Notes: generated by a model not told the origin, from the sequence alone. Numbered from the stretch's first letter, positions 21,028 through 62,082 are shown. The stretch: 64,000 nucleotides of DNA from a virus (IMGVR_UViG_2571042447_000001), one strand, 5' to 3'. Made by a program: numbers and translations.

Positions 21028-21178
21028 CGCACTCCCCCGTCTCGCTGGGGGAAGTGTGGGGCCGGCTGGGCTGTGGTGGCATTTGGGTGGTGTTCTCCCA
21101 TGGGTGACCTCACTGGTTTGGGATGTTCCCCTGGGGCACTTGCCCCCTGGGCCAGCTTGACTAGCTGGTGTGTCCCTG

Positions 21179-21208
21179 ACATTAGGTCACTATGCCCCAA
21201 TAGTGCAA
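21179..21208 (-). promoter_or_regulatory. SigA-like promoter (leftward) with operator in the spacer
   Basis: TTGCAC-N18-TAATGT; overlaps CACTAT-N6-ATAGTG (21188-21205). Confidence 0.6.
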
Positions 21209-21445
21209 GCTATGTGCCAACTATTGCAATTAATAGGCCTGAGGGTGACCCTGGGCAATCCTGGGGCCATTCTAGGCACTATGTACCCATAGTGCCTCAT
21301 GGCCCTGAGAATTGATCTCAGGGCCAGGGTCACCCTTCCTGAGGTTGACCAGTGATGCAGTGCAGCCATAGGGGCAGTTCACAACCCTGGGAGGTCTATC
21401 AGGTCCACAGAAATGCCCCTAAAAAATGCACCCCTACCTGCAGAG

Positions 21446-21475
21446 TTGACAGACTATGCCCCCATAGGGCAAACT
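21446..21475 (+). promoter_or_regulatory. SigA-like promoter (rightward) with operator in the spacer
   Basis: TTGACA-N18-CAAACT; the spacer is GACTAT-GCCCCC-ATAGGG. Confidence 0.65.
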
Positions 21476-21750
21476 ATGTCCCAGCAAGCCAGTAGGGGCC
21501 AGCAACACAGGCCAGCTGGCAAGCAATCTGGATACCAGCTCAGAGTCTGGAAAACCTCAGTGTTGGTCTGTCCCAACAACTTCATATCGTCACAAGCCTG
21601 AATGCCGGCTCTTGGGAACCCTGAATAGGCCAGGGAAGAAACCCTCGAGCACATGATCTTTGAGAACTCAATAGCGTGAGACACCCACAACCACAAGGCA
21701 GCAATGCCCAATGGTGTTGCTGCCAATGATCCCTCGGAAAGGGGACCATT

Positions 21751-42090: not shown

Positions 42091-42533
42091 GTTGTGTGGT
42101 CCTGTGTCGGGTCGATGGCGTACGGGAGGCTGCTGGCCAGGAAGTTCGCGAGTGTGTCGGTCTTGGCGGCGTCGGCGTTGTAGCGGGCGATGTCGGCGGC
42201 GCGTCCGGCACGAACAGCGGTGAGGGTGGAGTTGATCTGTGCGACGCGTTCAGGGGTCGCGTCTTTCGCTTCGGTGGTCAGGAACGCGATAGTCGCTTCC
42301 TTGCTTTGGATTTCGGCGCACCGGTTGAAGAACTGGTCGTACGCGGCGATGCGGTATGCACCGTTGGCGTGGACTTGTTCGGTGGCGGCGACTCCGCCTC
42401 GGAAGTCGGCGGTTTCTTTCTTGAAGAGTCCGATGCCGAGTGTTGCCATGCCTCCGACGACGAGGACGACGACGAAAAGAAGTACTCCGGCGAAGATGAA
42501 GGCGCGGTAGTCGCGCCAGTCGTTGTGGTTCAT
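42078..42533 (-). CDS. Membrane protein, partner of the lipoprotein
   Basis: N-terminal transmembrane segment AFIFAGVLLFVVVLVVGG; overlaps the lipoprotein start. Confidence 0.7.
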   Translation of the reverse strand: MNHNDWRDYRAFIFAGVLLFVVVLVVGGMATLGIGLFKKETADFRGGVAATEQVHANGAYRIAAYDQFFNRCAEIQSKEATIAFLTTEAKDATPERVAQINSTLTAVRAGRAADIARYNADAAKTDTLANFLASSLPYAIDPTQDHTTCAK

Positions 42534-42789
42534 CGGCGGTTCTTCCTCCGGGAATTGCGGGCGGCACGGTTCTTGGCGCGGCGTTCGGCTTTCGTTGCGG
42601 CGTCGAGGCTTCCGCTGTAGACGTGCTTGCGGGGGTCCTGCAGGCCGCGGAGGATCTGGTTGCTCATGCTCAGCCGATGCCGCTCGGGTGCGGGTGTTTC
42701 GTCCATGGGTTCTCGGTTTCTGTGTGGCCCAGGCCGGGGCGAGGTGTCTTCCTCACCCGCCCCGGCCGGGCGTCATGGGGTGGAGCGGA

Positions 42790-46164: not shown

Positions 46165-46512
46165 TCATAGCTGGACGAGGGCTGCGTCGCGTTCGTCTTC
46201 GGCGCGGTCGATGTATTCGCGGAAGAGGAGCAGCGCTGCCTCGTTGTCGGGGCAGTGAAACAGTCGGTCGGCTTCCCAAGCGGTGAGTCCGAGCAGTTTG
46301 CGGGCTTTGCGGGCGATCGCCCCGGTGAGACCGAAAGCAGGGATGATCTCGTATCCGGCGAGGTGGCAGGCGGTTCCGGCGATGCATCGGACGGTGCCGC
46401 ATGGCGTGGTCTTCGTCCACTGCCCTTGGTTGTGTTCGTCGGGGTGATCGATGAGGTACTGGTAGACCTCTTCGGCGAATTCGATGTTGAGGGTGCAGGT
46501 TTCGGGACTCAT
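46165..46512 (-). CDS. Hypothetical protein (paralog of 44024-44350)
   Basis: YLIDHPDEHNQGQW....CGTVRCIAG. Confidence 0.6.
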   Translation of the reverse strand: MSPETCTLNIEFAEEVYQYLIDHPDEHNQGQWTKTTPCGTVRCIAGTACHLAGYEIIPAFGLTGAIARKARKLLGLTAWEADRLFHCPDNEAALLLFREYIDRAEDERDAALVQL

Positions 46513-47473
46513 GACAGGTGCCCGTTGATCCAGAGGTGCCAGCGGCAGATTTCGATAGACAGTCCGGCTTCCCGGTTGAACTCGGGGTCGTCGGTGATTG
46601 CCTGGATGCGCTCGGGCAGTTCGTCGAGAGTGCCGCTGTCGTCGCGATCGGTGTGGTCGGTGCCGGTGTGCCAATCGGCGATCCATGCGTGTGGCTCGGT
46701 GAGGTTGAGCCAGGACGTGTCGGCGGTGATGGTGATGGCGACGTCGCGTTGGTTGGTGTCGATGCCGAGTTCGGTGAGCGCGGCTCGTTCGTTGTCGGTG
46801 AGGTGGACGTTGCGGACGAGTGCGGTGGTCACAGTTTCAGCTCCTTGCCTGCGGCGATCATGCTGCGCCGTGCTTCGGCGTGGATCATGGCGCGCTGGTC
46901 GGCTTTGAATGACTGCAACGGCGTTTCGCGGTGGATGCGGTTCGCGAGGGTTTCGACAGCGATGGGTTCGCGGTTGTCGGTGGGCCGGAATGTGTGCCGG
47001 GCTCTGCGGTTTTTGGGGGTGTTCATTGTGGGTGTCCTCTCGGATTGTTCGCCCTGCCAGGGGCATTGCCATTCTATCCGGTTTCTGTGTGTTGTGTTGG
47101 ATAGTAGACGACCGGATGTCGCGATGGATAGTAGACACCTGATTCAGGCGTCTACCGGGTCGTTCTCGTACCATTCGGGTCGACGCGGGGTGTTGCCGAA
47201 CGGGTTGTCGGCGGCGTTCCAGAACGGGTTGTGAGTGTCCGGATAGTCGCCGTAGTGGGCGCGTTCGATTTCGGCGCGGGCAACGGCGTCGAGTTGGGCC
47301 TCGTATCTCGGGCCTTCGTCGGCGCGGAGTTTGTCGAGTTGGGTTCGCGCGTCGGCGAGGTCTCGGATCGCTTGGTAGGCCTGGATCGCGTGGGCGTGTC
47401 GGCTTTCCGGGTGTTGTTTGATTGTCATTGGTTCACCTCCCTTGTGTTGTGGGACAGCTGGTTTCATGCACTG

Positions 47474-47503
47474 AGGTAACACTATGGGGGCATAGTGTGT
47501 CAA
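47474..47503 (-). promoter_or_regulatory. SigA-like promoter (leftward) with operator in the spacer
   Basis: TTGACA-N18-TTACCT; the spacer is CACTAT-GCCCCC-ATAGTG. Confidence 0.55.
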
Positions 47504-47737
47504 GTCCTCAGGGCCAATTCTGACTATTTGGTCATAGTGCCCCCTATTTGCCCTCAGGGGGCCAGAAAGTGCCATCCTGCCCCCTTGGGCACCCCAAGGG
47601 GCAATTGAGCCCCCAGGGGCCACCAGGGGGCCACCAGTGCAGTGTCCAGACTGACCACCAATCAGGGGGTAGCCACTCCCCTAGCTCCCACCTGGAGGCA
47701 TGACAAACCACCCTTGACCTGGGATCTAACCCAAGTG

Positions 47738-47767
47738 TTGACAGACTATGCACCCATAGTGCAAACT
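47738..47767 (+). promoter_or_regulatory. SigA-like promoter (rightward) with operator in the spacer
   Basis: TTGACA-GACTAT-GCACCC-ATAGTG-CAAACT, nearly identical to 21446-21475. Confidence 0.65.
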
Positions 47768-47984
47768 ATGGTCATGCCAGTGAGTGACAGTCACTGACAA
47801 GGCCACTGGAAGCCGGCAACGAAAGCCCGCCGGCAAGGCCGTAAGTCCCCCCAGTCTCAGCTGGGGTGCGGACACCGAATCTGGTCGGGTGAAATCCGCT
47901 CCCCCATGATCCTTGAGAACTCCACAGTGTGAGCACATTCGTGCACCCCATAGGACCACCCTCCACTCACGGAAGGTCACCCCT

Positions 47985-48227
47985 ATGCGAACAACCGCAA
48001 CCCTGGCAGAAAAAGCCCGTGAGCGCAACGCTCATCTCACCCCAGAACAGTTGCTTCACAACAAGATCCAGCGCGGCAAAATCCGGGTACACAGCACCCT
48101 CCGGGAACGACAGTTCCGGGACGGACTGGCCCTGCCGTCGGCATATCAGCAGCTCCTCGCACAACACGAACCGGCACTTCTCGGACAGTACGTCGCGAGA
48201 ATGCGGGAGTGGGGCGTCAAGCCCTAG
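47985..48227 (+). CDS. Hypothetical protein
   Basis: MRTTATLAEKARERN with upstream GGAAGG. Confidence 0.5.
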   Translation: MRTTATLAEKARERNAHLTPEQLLHNKIQRGKIRVHSTLRERQFRDGLALPSAYQQLLAQHEPALLGQYVARMREWGVKP

Positions 48228-48734: not shown

Positions 48735-48938
48735 ATGTCCGACTTCCGTGAAGATTTCGCTGCACTGTCCCACGTCCGGGCTCTCGAGGATCAGCTTCGC
48801 AAGCTGGTCACCGATCCTGTTTTGTGTGTACATTCTGCGTTGCTGCTCGATGCGTGTGAATCGCTCGACAGTCTCGCTCAGAACTTGATCGACAGTTCCG
48901 ACTCTCTCCAGCGCGCCCGTCTGCTCGTGGGCGCCTGA
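48735..48938 (+). CDS. Hypothetical protein
   Basis: AGGAG RBS; helical 67-aa ORF. Confidence 0.55.
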   Translation: MSDFREDFAALSHVRALEDQLRKLVTDPVLCVHSALLLDACESLDSLAQNLIDSSDSLQRARLLVGA

Positions 48939-49042
48939 CTCCCCTGTTTCGTCGTCCGGCGAGCCCTGATGGCTGTTCACAAGCCCCTACCGCCCGAGCT
49001 TCGGGTCGTAGGTCATCCCCCGAGTGGAGAGGAAACCCGATC

Positions 49043-56879: not shown

Positions 56880-58164
56880 TTATCCGATGCGTTGTTGGTA
56901 GCGCGCCATGGGAGTTGGAGTTGGCCGGTTTTGCCTGCTCGGTTTTTGGCGATGATGAGGGTGATGTAGCCGGTTGGTTGTCCTGTGGGGTCGGTTTCGT
57001 GGTGGAGGAGGATGACGGTGTCGGCGTCTTGTTCGATTGCGCCGCTTTCTCGTAGGTCGGTGAGTGCGGGTGGGCGGTTAAGTGTTGTTGGGCCGCGGTT
57101 GAGTTGGCAGGCGGTGACAGTGGGGATTTTGAGTTCTTTGGCGAGGATTTTGATGTTGCGGCTGATGTAGGCGACTTGTTCTTGTCGGGGGGTGTCGGTG
57201 TGGGCGGCGGTGACGAGTTGCAGGTAGTCGATGACGGCGAGGTCGAGGTTGCCGGTGTTTTTGCGGGTGTGGGCTTCGGTGGTGATTTGGTCGATGGTGA
57301 TGTTGGCGCGGTCGTTGATGGTGAGGGGTAGGGCTGGGTAGCGTCGGTGTAGGCGGCGAGGAGGTTTTGGTTGTGTTGGTCGAGTTGGTGTTTGGTGATT
57401 TGGCTGTATTCGGCGCGGGCTCCGTTGGCGAGGATGCGTGACATGACTTCGAGGGTGGGCATTTCGAGGGACCAGAGGCTGGTGTGTTTGTTGTTTTCTG
57501 TTGCGTGTCCGGCGATGTTGAGTGCGGCGACTGATTTTCCGGCGCCTGGTCGGCCGGCGAGGATGTAGCTGCGTCCGGGGTGGAGTCCGCCGTTGAGCAT
57601 GTCGTTGAGTTCGGGCCAGGGGGTGGGGATGACGTTGGTGAGGTCGAGGGGTTGGAGTGTGTCGGTCCACCAGTCTTCGAGGGTGTTTTCGTAGGTGGTG
57701 GTGTGGTTGGTTTCGGGGTTGGTGTTGTTGAGTGCGGTGGTGGCGGTGCGTGCTGCGGTGGCGAGGTCTTCGGGGTTGTTGTTGTGGATGGCTTCGGTGG
57801 TGCGGTGGAGGAGGGTTTGTGCGGTGGTGATGAGGGTGCGGGCTGTGTGGAGTTGGTGGAGTCTGCGCGCGTGGTAGGGGATGGATTCGCCGTAACCGGT
57901 GCCGACGAGTTGGGTGACGAGTTGGTGGAGGTTGCGGGTGTTGGGGGTGGTGTGGTTTCGGGTGGAGGCGAGGATGGTGGTGGGGTCGAGGGGGTCGCCG
58001 TTGAGGACCATGGTGGTGATGGCGGTGTGGAGGTCTTGGTGGGCGGGTGCGTAGAAGTGTTCGCGGGGGATGTCGAGTAGTTGTTTGGCGTAGTGGGGTT
58101 CGGTGATGACGGCGCCGAGGATGGCGCGTTCGGCGTCGAGGTCGCAGGTGGGTTCGTCGGTCAT
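56880..58164 (-). CDS. dnaB: DnaB-like replicative helicase (apparent frameshifts near 57340 and 56905)
   Basis: AERAILGA, LAGRPGAGKS, SLEM, IDYLQL, SRNIKILAKEL, QLNR, DLRESGAIEQDAD and AKNRAG motifs. Confidence 0.9.
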
Positions 58165-58217
58165 GGTGGGGGTGCTCTTCTCGGGCGCTACGGGCGTTGT
58201 GGGTGTCTAGGCAGGGT

Positions 58218-58721
58218 TTAGACACCCGTGGGGCCGTTTGAGCGCTCTATCGCGCTCTGGGGCCTCGTTTTGCCGCGTATGGCGTCGGCGATGCGGTGCC
58301 GGTTTTCGCGGATCCAGTCGCGGTGTCGGTCTTTGGCCCAGGTGTCTGCGTGTGTGGGGTCGAGTTCGGCGGGTGGTTCCCAGTGGGGTGTCGGGATGCC
58401 GCTGATGGCTTCGATGGTTCGGGCGTGGGGTTTGTCGATCCAGCGGAGGAGCCAGCGGTTGATGCGTTCGTCGGAGCTGGTGGGTCCGAGGGGTTGCTCC
58501 CGGACGGTGGCGAGGACGTCGCCGGGCATGATCGCGAACGGGTTCGGTTTGCGGTAGTGCGTCAGCACGGCGTCGAGGGCTTCGGTGTGTCCGATGTCCT
58601 CGCCGGTGAAGCATTCGGCCCAGGCGAGGATCTGGGGGTCGTCGGCGGTGATGCGGTGGTCGAGGAGTGCGGCTTTGGCGAGGGTGAGTCCTGCGATCTC
58701 GATGTCAGTCGAGCTGGGCAT
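58218..58721 (-). CDS. Putative helicase loader / hypothetical
   Basis: LAKAALLDHR...AW...ALDAVLTHY...IMPGDV; located between initiator and DnaB. Confidence 0.55.
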   Translation of the reverse strand: MPSSTDIEIAGLTLAKAALLDHRITADDPQILAWAECFTGEDIGHTEALDAVLTHYRKPNPFAIMPGDVLATVREQPLGPTSSDERINRWLLRWIDKPHARTIEAISGIPTPHWEPPAELDPTHADTWAKDRHRDWIRENRHRIADAIRGKTRPQSAIERSNGPTGV

Positions 58722-60143: not shown

Positions 60144-60647
60144 CTACAGGTGGTGCCAGGGCACCGGATCTACCCCAATATCCGGTATGCGATCACGACG
60201 CCTCGAGGAGCGCGTCGACTGTCGCTCTCCCCCACATCTGCTCGGCTTTCTCCCACGCCGGCAGCGGCGCGTTCTGCAGCAGCTCGGCGAGGAACTCTCT
60301 CGGAACTTTGATGCCGGCTTGGGTGCCGGTGCGGATCGCTGCGCGCGTTTCGTGCGAGAGAAGTGGTCCCGGCATTCCTGACACGGCGGTTCCATGTGCG
60401 ACCGGTGCCGGGAGTAGCCGCCGTCGGTGCCGTGCTTGATGTTGCTCGGCCACACGAACAGGTCGTCGGAGACGACGGTCGCCTCGTGGCATACCGCGGA
60501 CGGCGAGTGCCCGTCCATGTCGAGGCACACTCGCAGTCCCCCACCGTCGGCGCCGGACAGGATCTTCACGACCCAACCCGGCTGGTAGATGCCCCACTGG
60601 GTCTCGATCGGGCGAATCAACGGCAATTCGCGTCCCCGAACGATCAT
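60144..60647 (-). CDS. Hypothetical protein
   Basis: HGTDGGYSRH....PPCQEC motif; coupled to the methylase stop. Confidence 0.5.
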   Translation of the reverse strand: MIVRGRELPLIRPIETQWGIYQPGWVVKILSGADGGGLRVCLDMDGHSPSAVCHEATVVSDDLFVWPSNIKHGTDGGYSRHRSHMEPPCQECRDHFSRTKRAQRSAPAPKPASKFRESSSPSCCRTRRCRRGRKPSRCGGERQSTRSSRRRDRIPDIGVDPVPWHHL

Positions 60648-62082
60648 GCCGCCACCCCCAACGATTCTGCGACGGCCGCGATCAGGTCACGTGCGGCCGG
60701 TGGCGTCACGGCGTTTCCGGCCTGCCGCACCTGTTCGCGTTTGTTGCCGAGGATCGTGTAGTCCGACGGGAAGGCCATTCCTGCTGCGATCTCGTGCGGT
60801 TCGAGCATCCGGAACAAGCAATCGTCGACGGACAGCGACTCGGCGCTGGCCAGACCGTGATGCAGTCCGTTCGCTGCGAACGTATCGAGCGGATCGGTGA
60901 TCGATTTCACGGTGTTGTTGTTCCGCATCGGCACGACGAATGCGTGATGGATTCCGCCTGCCGACACCGTCGAAATCGGTTCGTCAACATGATGATTCTT
61001 CGACTGCCCGCGCATCACCGACAGGAAAGCGACGGCAGTTTCGTTTCGTGCTGTCATCGTCCGAAGCGGGTCGACTGCGGACCGTGCTTGCTTCCCGTCA
61101 CGACCCTCCACTGGCACGAGCAGCGCTGGCACGGTTGATGCCGTCAACGTCGGCAAGTGGCGTCAGTGCTCGTCGACATCTGCGCAAGGTTGCTTCGCGG
61201 CGTGTACGCGCGTTGCACGAATGGTGCCGCATACTTTGCCAAGCCGGCCTCGATCCGGGCCAACGTCTTCGGCGCCAACGGCTTGGCTCGGTCCCCGATT
61301 CGCTCCCCGATGATCGACCAATCGATCGCCGACGCAGCGGGGAGCCAACGGGGCTCGACAATCGAGTTGCGGCAGGCCACGTTCGGGCACCGCCAGTGGT
61401 ACTGCGAGCGGTAGCGCCCCCACTGGGTTGACTTCTTCCAGCCCTGGATTGCCGTCACGGTGGCATCGCAGGTCGAGCAGTGCGCCTCCGGTCGGGTCCA
61501 CTTGTCGAGGTCCGGGGCGCGGTTGCCCTTGAGCCAGAACACGACATACATCCTGTCTCTTGATTGCGGAGCTGGAAGTCCGCCGATCTGGGCGTGCATC
61601 GAGTTCATGTAGACGATCCGGTGGTTGTATCCGAGGAGGTCCATCGCTTGGAGCCACGCGGGGAACATGATCCACTTCGCGGCGTCGACGACGTTCTCGG
61701 TGATGATCGCTTCGTATCGGTGATGTTCGGCGAACCGCGGAATGTCCCACATCGTTGCGCGGGACCGTTCGGCAGCCGCGTCGGGCAACGTCTCCCCGAA
61801 CAAGTCCGGCGTCGAGTCGAGGTTTCGTTTGACGCCCTTCGCCTGAGAATGGTTCGTGCATTCGGGCGAACCCCACAGGATCGTCGTTCGAGGGAACCGC
61901 CGAGGATCGACCTGCGACAGATCGGCGCACTGGTGATCAGTGTTCGGATGGTTCGTGTTGTGGGTTTCGATCGCAAGTTCCCAGTGGTTCGCCGCCATAC
62001 GTACCGTGACGCCGGGCACTTGCGTCGCGCCGGTGCTCGATCCACCTGCGCCACAGAACAGGTCGGTGACCGTGATCGTCAT
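60644..62082 (-). CDS. DNA (cytosine-5) methyltransferase (apparent frameshift near 61160)
   Basis: DLFCGAGG (motif I), GSPEC (IV), ENV (VI), PQSRDR (VIII) and QAGNAV (X). Confidence 0.88.

Follow-up and report, generated by a model that had tools for sequence, protein, structure and literature searches.

A CG-free stretch between two divergent prophage operons as the probable core of a regulatory hub kept CG-free by selection

The stretch of viral DNA analyzed here (IMGVR_UViG_2571042447_000001; 64,000 nucleotides (nt), hereafter the window) comes from a temperate, ~84-kilobase (kb) prophage of a soil actinobacterium and contains, where two divergent operons meet, a stretch without a single CG dinucleotide that we refer to as island 2 (Table 1). 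The gene map was taken from near-identical contigs with gene calls and from the 84-kb provirus G002 (L021), and the calls on the contigs bear out the leftward/rightward switch that a preliminary description of this DNA had placed at island 2. Beyond their first genes, the leftward operon comprises small genes, SSB, YfdP, DUF2303, RlaP, RusA, TROVE/Ro60 and TetR, and the rightward operon small orphan genes, DUF3846 and an AAA ATPase of 413 amino acids (aa). We propose that a regulatory hub drives these two non-structural operons, that island 2 forms its core and that selection keeps island 2 CG-free, a reading to which we assign a probability of roughly 0.55.

Table 1. Features in and around island 2, in window coordinates (bp, base pairs)
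Feature	Coordinates	Strand	Remarks
CG-free island 2	47410-47813	none	404 bp; 0 CG versus 31.6 expected from its own composition
Island 1 (sister hub)	21065-21587	none	525 bp; same operators, 264-bp O1-O3 spacing and boxA leader; rest unalignable
Intergenic control region between divergent operons	47429-47984		556 bp; right-hand 171 bp (47814-47984) with CG
First gene, leftward operon	47144-47428	minus	94-aa orphan, no Pfam family
First gene, rightward operon	47985-48227	plus	80-aa orphan
Operator O1	47480-47497		18-bp palindrome; occupies spacer of leftward putative promoter
Operator O2	47522-47539		42 bp from O1; left half-site degenerate in relatives
Operator O3	47744-47761		occupies spacer of rightward putative promoter; start exactly 264 bp from O1
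TTGACA -35, putative leftward promoter	47498-47503	minus	abuts O1; candidate -10 TTACCT or TACCTC, weak
TTGACA -35, putative rightward promoter	47738-47743	plus	abuts O3; candidate -10 CAAACT, 18-nt spacer, weak
Inverted repeat of the two promoter-operator modules	47465-47503 and 47738-47776		39-nt arms, 77% complementary
Hairpin	47582-47602		perfect 9-bp stem palindrome; one of four CCC-N1-3-GGG words at 47551-47620
GGCCACCAG word, two copies	47618-47637	plus	11 bp apart; recurs in VanLee and Cafasso hubs
boxA-like leader element	47908-47931	plus	host rRNA-leader core; hairpin 47868-47899 upstream
Inverted repeat arms bracketing small genes	47938-47964/48242-48268; 48274-48302/48654-48682; 48688-48713/48957-48982		
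C5 methyltransferase (PF00145)	60647-62082	minus	479 aa in GCA_000454285.1; frameshift near 61159 in window

The CG positions give island 2 exactly the extent claimed in the preliminary description, the bounding CGs lying at 47408-47409 and 47814-47815. At a G+C content of 55.9%, none of 5000 shuffles of island 2 contained fewer than 19 CGs, and the Poisson probability of finding none at all is ~2e-14. The window as a whole has a G+C content of 62% and over-represents CG (observed/expected 1.24); its sole comparable CG gap is island 1, and the third largest measures 76 bp. Segments of 150 bp with a CG observed/expected ratio below 0.25 were confined to the hubs, both in this lineage (two in the window and two in G002, whose only CG-poor regions are the two islands) and in phages related through their portal protein (one in VanLee and two in Cafasso, and none in the more distant Hiyaa, which served as control). 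Within island 2, CA and TG reach 1.67 times and CC/GG ~1.4 times their expectation, with GA, TC and TA being low. As the over-represented dinucleotides are one mutation away from CG, island 2 resembles ordinary DNA from which CG has been erased. Full-text literature searches returned no description of CG-free phage regions. As a separate observation, the DnaB gene region (57080-58600) shows unusually long gaps for AA (814 bp), AC, CA and CC, which suggest a strongly biased composition.

We compared island 2 with its counterparts in related proviruses and contigs. Between the window and L015, the most diverged relative, it differs by 43 substitutions plus compensating insertions and deletions, from which 7.8-8.5 new CGs would be expected; one is found in L015 and none in the window, a shortfall with P ~0.001 when the same types of substitution are placed at random. 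Closer relatives carry 5-17 substitutions each, and a soil metatranscriptome variant about a dozen changes, without any added CG. Divergence in L015 is concentrated in the central 160 bp (~22%), the promoter-operator modules and flanks being nearly identical, and even this fastest-evolving part has stayed CG-free. This substitution test supports the earlier claim that the loss of CG is maintained independently.

Similar gaps were found in more distant lineages. The Gordonia phage Cafasso (G+C content 67%) has a 672-bp stretch at a divergent switch with just two CGs, both inside operator spacers, and a 178-bp CG-free stretch at a second divergent switch. In the Gordonia phage VanLee, a CG gap of 340 bp lies at the switch syntenic with island 1, and the metagenomic relative L080 has one of 411 bp, with flanking genes 74% identical to those beside island 1. 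Pooled over six hubs from four lineages, 6 CGs were counted versus ~234 expected. The Streptomyces phage Hiyaa, with many long intergenic regions, showed no CG gap longer than 53 bp in the 50 kb examined, and CG abounds in the host ribosomal RNA (rRNA) promoter region; an absence of CG is therefore not a default property of high-GC non-coding DNA. Taken together, this comparison shows that the hub is kept CG-free by purifying selection, an absence explained by neither common descent nor base composition. Cafasso also has a third long divergent intergenic region (L019 2181-2731; record 42181-42731) with a CG gap of 98 bp, and a homologue of the gene on its right side occurs in the phage lineage of the window and not in VanLee.

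Other searches were run for further counterparts. DNA-level searches of the phage collection for near and distant matches found nothing, a family search of 400 genomes found only the near-identical prophage, and protein-seeded locus searches of viral and genome collections found only the same provirus or strain. In metagenomes, a strict promoter-operator pattern found nothing, and a loose one gave 120 mostly chance matches, of which L080 and the near-identical L131 were useful after filtering. An unrelated contig with 52% G+C (LKMJ01003677.1, L091 4790-5060) carries ~27 tandem 10-bp units GGACCATGCA/GGACTATGCA, CG-free by construction, in which the ACTATG half-site word is probably a coincidence.

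Apart from the operators discussed below, island 2 contains several recurrent words. The CCTCAGG/CCTGAGG words of the preliminary description are present in two copies, and the two islands hold four of the nine CCTSAGG copies in the window, but the enrichment over dinucleotide-matched shuffles is borderline (P ~0.03-0.05). The hairpin described there exists as a perfect palindrome but is not conserved, being lost in L015. CCC-N1-3-GGG words occur at ~5 times their dinucleotide-matched expectation in both islands, four of them between the modules of island 2, and CACCAG and CCAGGG(G) were present in all six hubs compared. The GGCCACCAG word, also present in the Cafasso hub, forms an array of ~25 copies in that of VanLee. 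Two further candidates were discarded: enrichment of CCWGG, GGCC and CAG/CTG did not exceed that in dinucleotide-matched shuffles, and a ~10-bp helical periodicity of GGG/CCC runs appeared in island 2 alone and not in island 1 or Cafasso. The VanLee array coincides with gene 163, annotated as 'membrane protein' (L011 32424-32726; record 82424-82726), which is probably an annotation artefact of the stop-free repeat with units of 9 or 12 bp. Literature searches on repeats in Gordonia phages returned nothing relevant.

These words raise the possibility that the hub is merely a dense collection of binding words (operators, promoter hexamers, CCACCAGGG-type and CCC-N-GGG words) in which CG happens to be missing and which are renewed by slippage or duplication, so that CG would rarely arise and would be lost together with motif-breaking mutations, with no direct selection on CG. 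Both the VanLee gap, made up mostly of copies of one 9-mer, and the sharing and five-fold excess of words noted above would fit such an origin. Island 2, however, has only two copies of the 9-mer, and its central part, which diverges by point substitution and is thus not tightly constrained, gains no CG; moreover, arrays are lacking from the non-repeat part of the VanLee gap, from both Cafasso hubs and from L080, all of which are nevertheless CG-poor. On balance, we consider this explanation unlikely.

Methylation offers another route to a CG-free hub. If CG sites were methylated by a host or phage enzyme, their absence from the hub could keep protein-DNA contacts equal in methylated virion DNA and unmethylated prophage DNA; alternatively, deamination of methylated cytosine could have erased CG where no coding constraint restores it. 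The excess of CA/TG is the classical deamination signature, and the window's lineage encodes a C5 methyltransferase of family PF00145 in a neighboring operon. The window's own copy of this gene, however, is frameshifted, and VanLee and Cafasso have hubs yet encode neither a PF00145 nor a PF01555 enzyme (that is, no C5 or N4/N6 methyltransferase family), which rejects a phage methyltransferase as the common cause. In addition, the genome-wide excess of CG must include many synonymous sites, and no CG-containing 4-mer palindrome is depleted. CpG decay as it operates in vertebrates is far too weak a bias to yield an observed/expected ratio below ~0.04. Decay by deamination is ruled out because the local ratio is near zero in a genome that has CG in excess and depletes no CG palindrome, and methylation in either form seems to us distinctly improbable. 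Two side observations touch on this subject: the PF00145 gene is also split in one Logan assembly, and in the whole window AGATCT (0 versus 11 expected), GGGCCC (0 versus 7.5) and TATA (1 versus 10.6) are missing or nearly so, the absence of the first two suggesting pressure from BglII- and ApaI-type restriction enzymes.

The preliminary description had presented island 2 as a second copy of the control design of island 1, with the similarity limited to the promoter-operator core. Alignment of the islands agrees with this view and adds to it: a 34-bp core of the island 2 rightward promoter matches 21445-21478 in island 1 with 94% identity, and beyond this core only the operator copies and an 18-bp leader element can be aligned. 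When anchored at the operators without gaps, the inter-operator DNA is 28.9% identical, versus 25.7 +/- 4% at other offsets, which is background level; accordingly, a recent segmental duplication of island 1, which the preliminary description had named as a refutation of its view, was rejected. The O1-O3 distance is exactly the same in both islands despite the unalignable DNA between the operators, and it recurs in G001, G002 and L012-L015, with L015 keeping it through a compensating -1/+1 indel pair. Since 264 bp corresponds to ~25 helical turns, DNA looping between O1 and O3 is suggested, with one regulator bridging these two promoter-proximal operators. With island 2, one genome contains a second, independent instance of what is seen in island 1; this ties the rule to the hub instead of a single locus and makes chance or common descent untenable as its explanation. 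The present analysis contributes the shared spacing, the boxA leader and further lineages, and it excludes a phage methylase as common cause.

A search for the operator word SACTAT-N6-ATAGKG found six sites in the 64-kb window, three in each island and none elsewhere (0.13 expected by chance), and thereby recovered the three operators previously described in island 2. As in the lambda OR region, palindromic operators overlap the putative divergent promoters, O1 and O3 filling their 18-nt spacers. Both TTGACA hexamers are perfect and face outwards, and the two modules form an inverted repeat whose arms lie 234 nt apart. In the Cafasso hub, four promoters match TTGACA-N16-19-TANNNT perfectly and have related operators in their spacers; the 47 kb of Cafasso scanned contain no other such matches. 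Because these homologous modules are perfect promoters with related operators, we accept those of island 2 as putative promoters pending mapping.

Downstream of island 2, the rightward leader contains a hairpin followed by GATCYTTGAGAACTC..., an arrangement also seen in the rightward leader of island 1 (boxA-like element at 21652-21675, its core at 21652-21669), with compensatory differences between the hairpin stems of the two leaders. In the window, the boxA-like element was found in these two leaders only; its core is also present in L080. In host-family genomes, CTTGAGAACTC plus flanking bases also occurs ~190 nt upstream of the 16S gene (L026 1497-1525), which we take to be where boxA lies in the rRNA leader; in related genomes, the 16S leader has a Streptomyces-like appearance. 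The boxA word thus matches that of the host rRNA leader, as in rRNA-operon and nut sites, and would lie downstream of the putative promoter, so that the element may be a Nus-dependent antitermination site. The predicted fold of the leader RNA was not significant, and literature searches on boxA in actinophages returned nothing relevant.

As an additional observation on this operon, each of the first three small rightward genes is flanked by a 26-29-nt long-range inverted repeat, 77-85% complementary, with duplex z-scores of -6.1 and -3.6 for two of the pairs and arms that are invariant in relatives. Together with the boxA leader, these repeats resemble the leader-trailer helices around rRNAs; the rightward operon of island 1 is without them.

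At the RNA level, contigs from RNA libraries of four soil metatranscriptomes cover 46350-47740 and pass through island 2, at a depth over the island and the left operon ~2.5-3 times that over the right-hand genes; they show neither strand nor ends and constitute weak evidence of expression. One run yielded a separate 239-nt contig at 47415-47652. Contig ends at 47737-47770 were rejected as RNA ends, because they coincide with the 34-bp repeat common to island 1 and thus mark assembly breaks, and the uncovered stretch at ~48857-49030 proves nothing. If island 2 were transcribed as a long leader or non-coding RNA, CG might be excluded from that RNA rather than from the DNA, for instance by escape from a ribonuclease or by action as a protein sponge. 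This would agree with the separate 239-nt contig and with the contigs that traverse island 2 completely and are as deep there as over the left operon. On the other hand, the libraries may contain DNA, an Rfam search gave no credible family match, the predicted folds of either strand were no better than those of shuffles (z -1.1 and -1.9), the hairpin lacks conservation, and the mRNA downstream is rich in CG. A constraint of this kind is very unlikely in our judgment.

With respect to the timing of expression, the preliminary description had viewed the two islands as parallel early divergent units built on one rule. The shared design is supported and extended by the results above, but the designation 'early' is unproven. 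The classical lysogeny module, consisting of an integrase, a 124-aa HTH_3 repressor and a divergent cro-like gene, lies outside the window (G002 1-2090); GTGGACA/TGTCCAC and TCTAGA-type words, distinct from the hub operators, abound in its intergenic region. Since the leftward unit of island 1 heads toward the terminase and structural genes, both hubs may be delayed or late units.

The preliminary description had also raised the possibility of an origin or partition role. A replication origin or a centromere-like partition site built of iterons would account for short repeated words and for the long 9-bp array of VanLee, and ParR- and omega-type proteins are known to bind iteron arrays at promoters. 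Yet these phages carry integrases, none of the genes that were called and scanned around the hubs encodes ParA or ParB, more than 9 kb separates the region from the initiator and DnaB genes, and its anatomy is that of operator-bearing promoters. For the islands themselves such a role is unsupported, nothing having been found that speaks for it, and we regard it as hardly credible.

Overall, these results suggest a model in which two outward-facing modules, each combining TTGACA with an 18-bp operator in the spacer, would drive the divergent operons under the control of one dimeric regulator. This regulator would occupy the operators and probably loop O1 to O3, shutting both promoters of both hubs together; once transcription fires, its rightward branch would be made resistant to termination through Nus factors. 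The CG-free span reaches from a few tens of bases downstream of one presumed start to a few tens beyond the other. The agent of selection, at low confidence, would read CG on DNA and disturb initiation or its control inside the hub; it might belong to the host or the phage and act by binding, modification or cutting, and would be harmless in CG-rich coding DNA. As coding DNA keeps its CGs, the effect of such an agent must be local and concern initiation or its control. Our best guess, and a low-confidence one, is that CG is excluded from the hubs by a factor, of host or phage origin, that reads CG on DNA.

Several observations weigh against this model of a regulated hub under selection. With regard to the regulator, Pfam and homologue searches assigned both proteins flanking island 2 to no DNA-binding family and left them as orphans. 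As a result, the adjacent repressor gene of a lambda OR-type arrangement is missing, and the only clear repressor (HTH_3) adjoins the integrase outside the window, beside different repeated words. A hunt through genes common to the window's lineage and Cafasso, which has related operators, but not VanLee gave no convincing candidate. Protein-atlas look-ups of the 80-aa and 199-aa hub-adjacent proteins likewise gave no usable lead. The divergent TTGACA promoters of the preliminary description stand as far as the hexamers abutting O1 and O3 are concerned, but their -10 hexamers are poor and a standard sigma-70 consensus scan called no promoter in island 2, so they are putative. The spacing from which the putative loop is deduced is 265 bp in one near relative and ~240 bp in the island-1-type hub of L080. 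As for the exclusion itself, CG is tolerated once in L015 and twice in the large Cafasso hub, and the VanLee gap consists mostly of a tandem 9-mer array that is CG-free by construction. Finally, CG-containing palindromes are not avoided genome-wide, the C5 methyltransferase occurs only in the window's lineage and not in VanLee or Cafasso, and no CG-reading factor is known or was found.

An operator-controlled divergent promoter region is in itself ordinary; the exclusion of one dinucleotide from it is unusual, the more so as it spans 400-700 bp, survives sequence turnover and occurs in at least four phage lineages with two host labels (Streptomyces and Gordonia). The 264-bp spacing and the host-type boxA provide concrete handles on looping and antitermination, and the CG rule could reveal a DNA-reading activity in actinobacteria or their phages that is not known so far. 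Speculatively, CG deserts may surround the main promoter hubs since a factor on CG-containing DNA blocks initiation or its control, a proposal that we offer tentatively and consider unlikely. If true, this factor would act on nearly all host DNA as well as on phage coding DNA, and could belong to host defense or silencing or be a phage host-shutoff protein. With the factor active, the hubs would be the only initiation-competent DNA, with a boxA-modified polymerase running through the coated coding DNA; they would form a sign-reversed bacterial-virus counterpart of promoter CpG islands and would imply a new class of dinucleotide-reading DNA factor.

Among the closest known systems is lambda OR/OL (PR/PRM and CI looping), with which the hubs share three palindromic operators overlapping divergent promoters, a second set elsewhere and a loop-compatible spacing. 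Unlike in lambda, no repressor gene lies beside the hub, the integrase/HTH_3/cro-like module being located elsewhere with other words, both hubs have the identical 264-bp spacing, and the whole region is CG-free. The succession of hairpin and boxA in the leader, together with the host rRNA-leader core, recalls rRNA-operon and lambda nut sites (boxB hairpin and boxA; NusB/NusE), although no N-like protein was identified and the element, known here from its sequence, is restricted to the window's two rightward leaders. Short tandem words between divergent promoters, with ~25 units of 9 or 12 bp in VanLee, are reminiscent of ribbon-helix-helix iterons (ParR/parC and omega heptads), but island 2 holds no more than two copies, and a partner protein would be hypothetical. 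As in the avoidance of short words by phages (restriction sites; GATC with Dam/SeqA), a short self-complementary word appears to be excluded by selection; here, however, the word is a dinucleotide, excluded only locally and over-represented elsewhere in the genome. Finally, vertebrate CpG depletion and CpG islands share with the hubs the replacement of CG by TG/CA and a sharp regional contrast at promoters, whereas in this bacteriophage the contrast runs the other way, with the CG deserts at the promoters, and nothing implicates a CG methylase.
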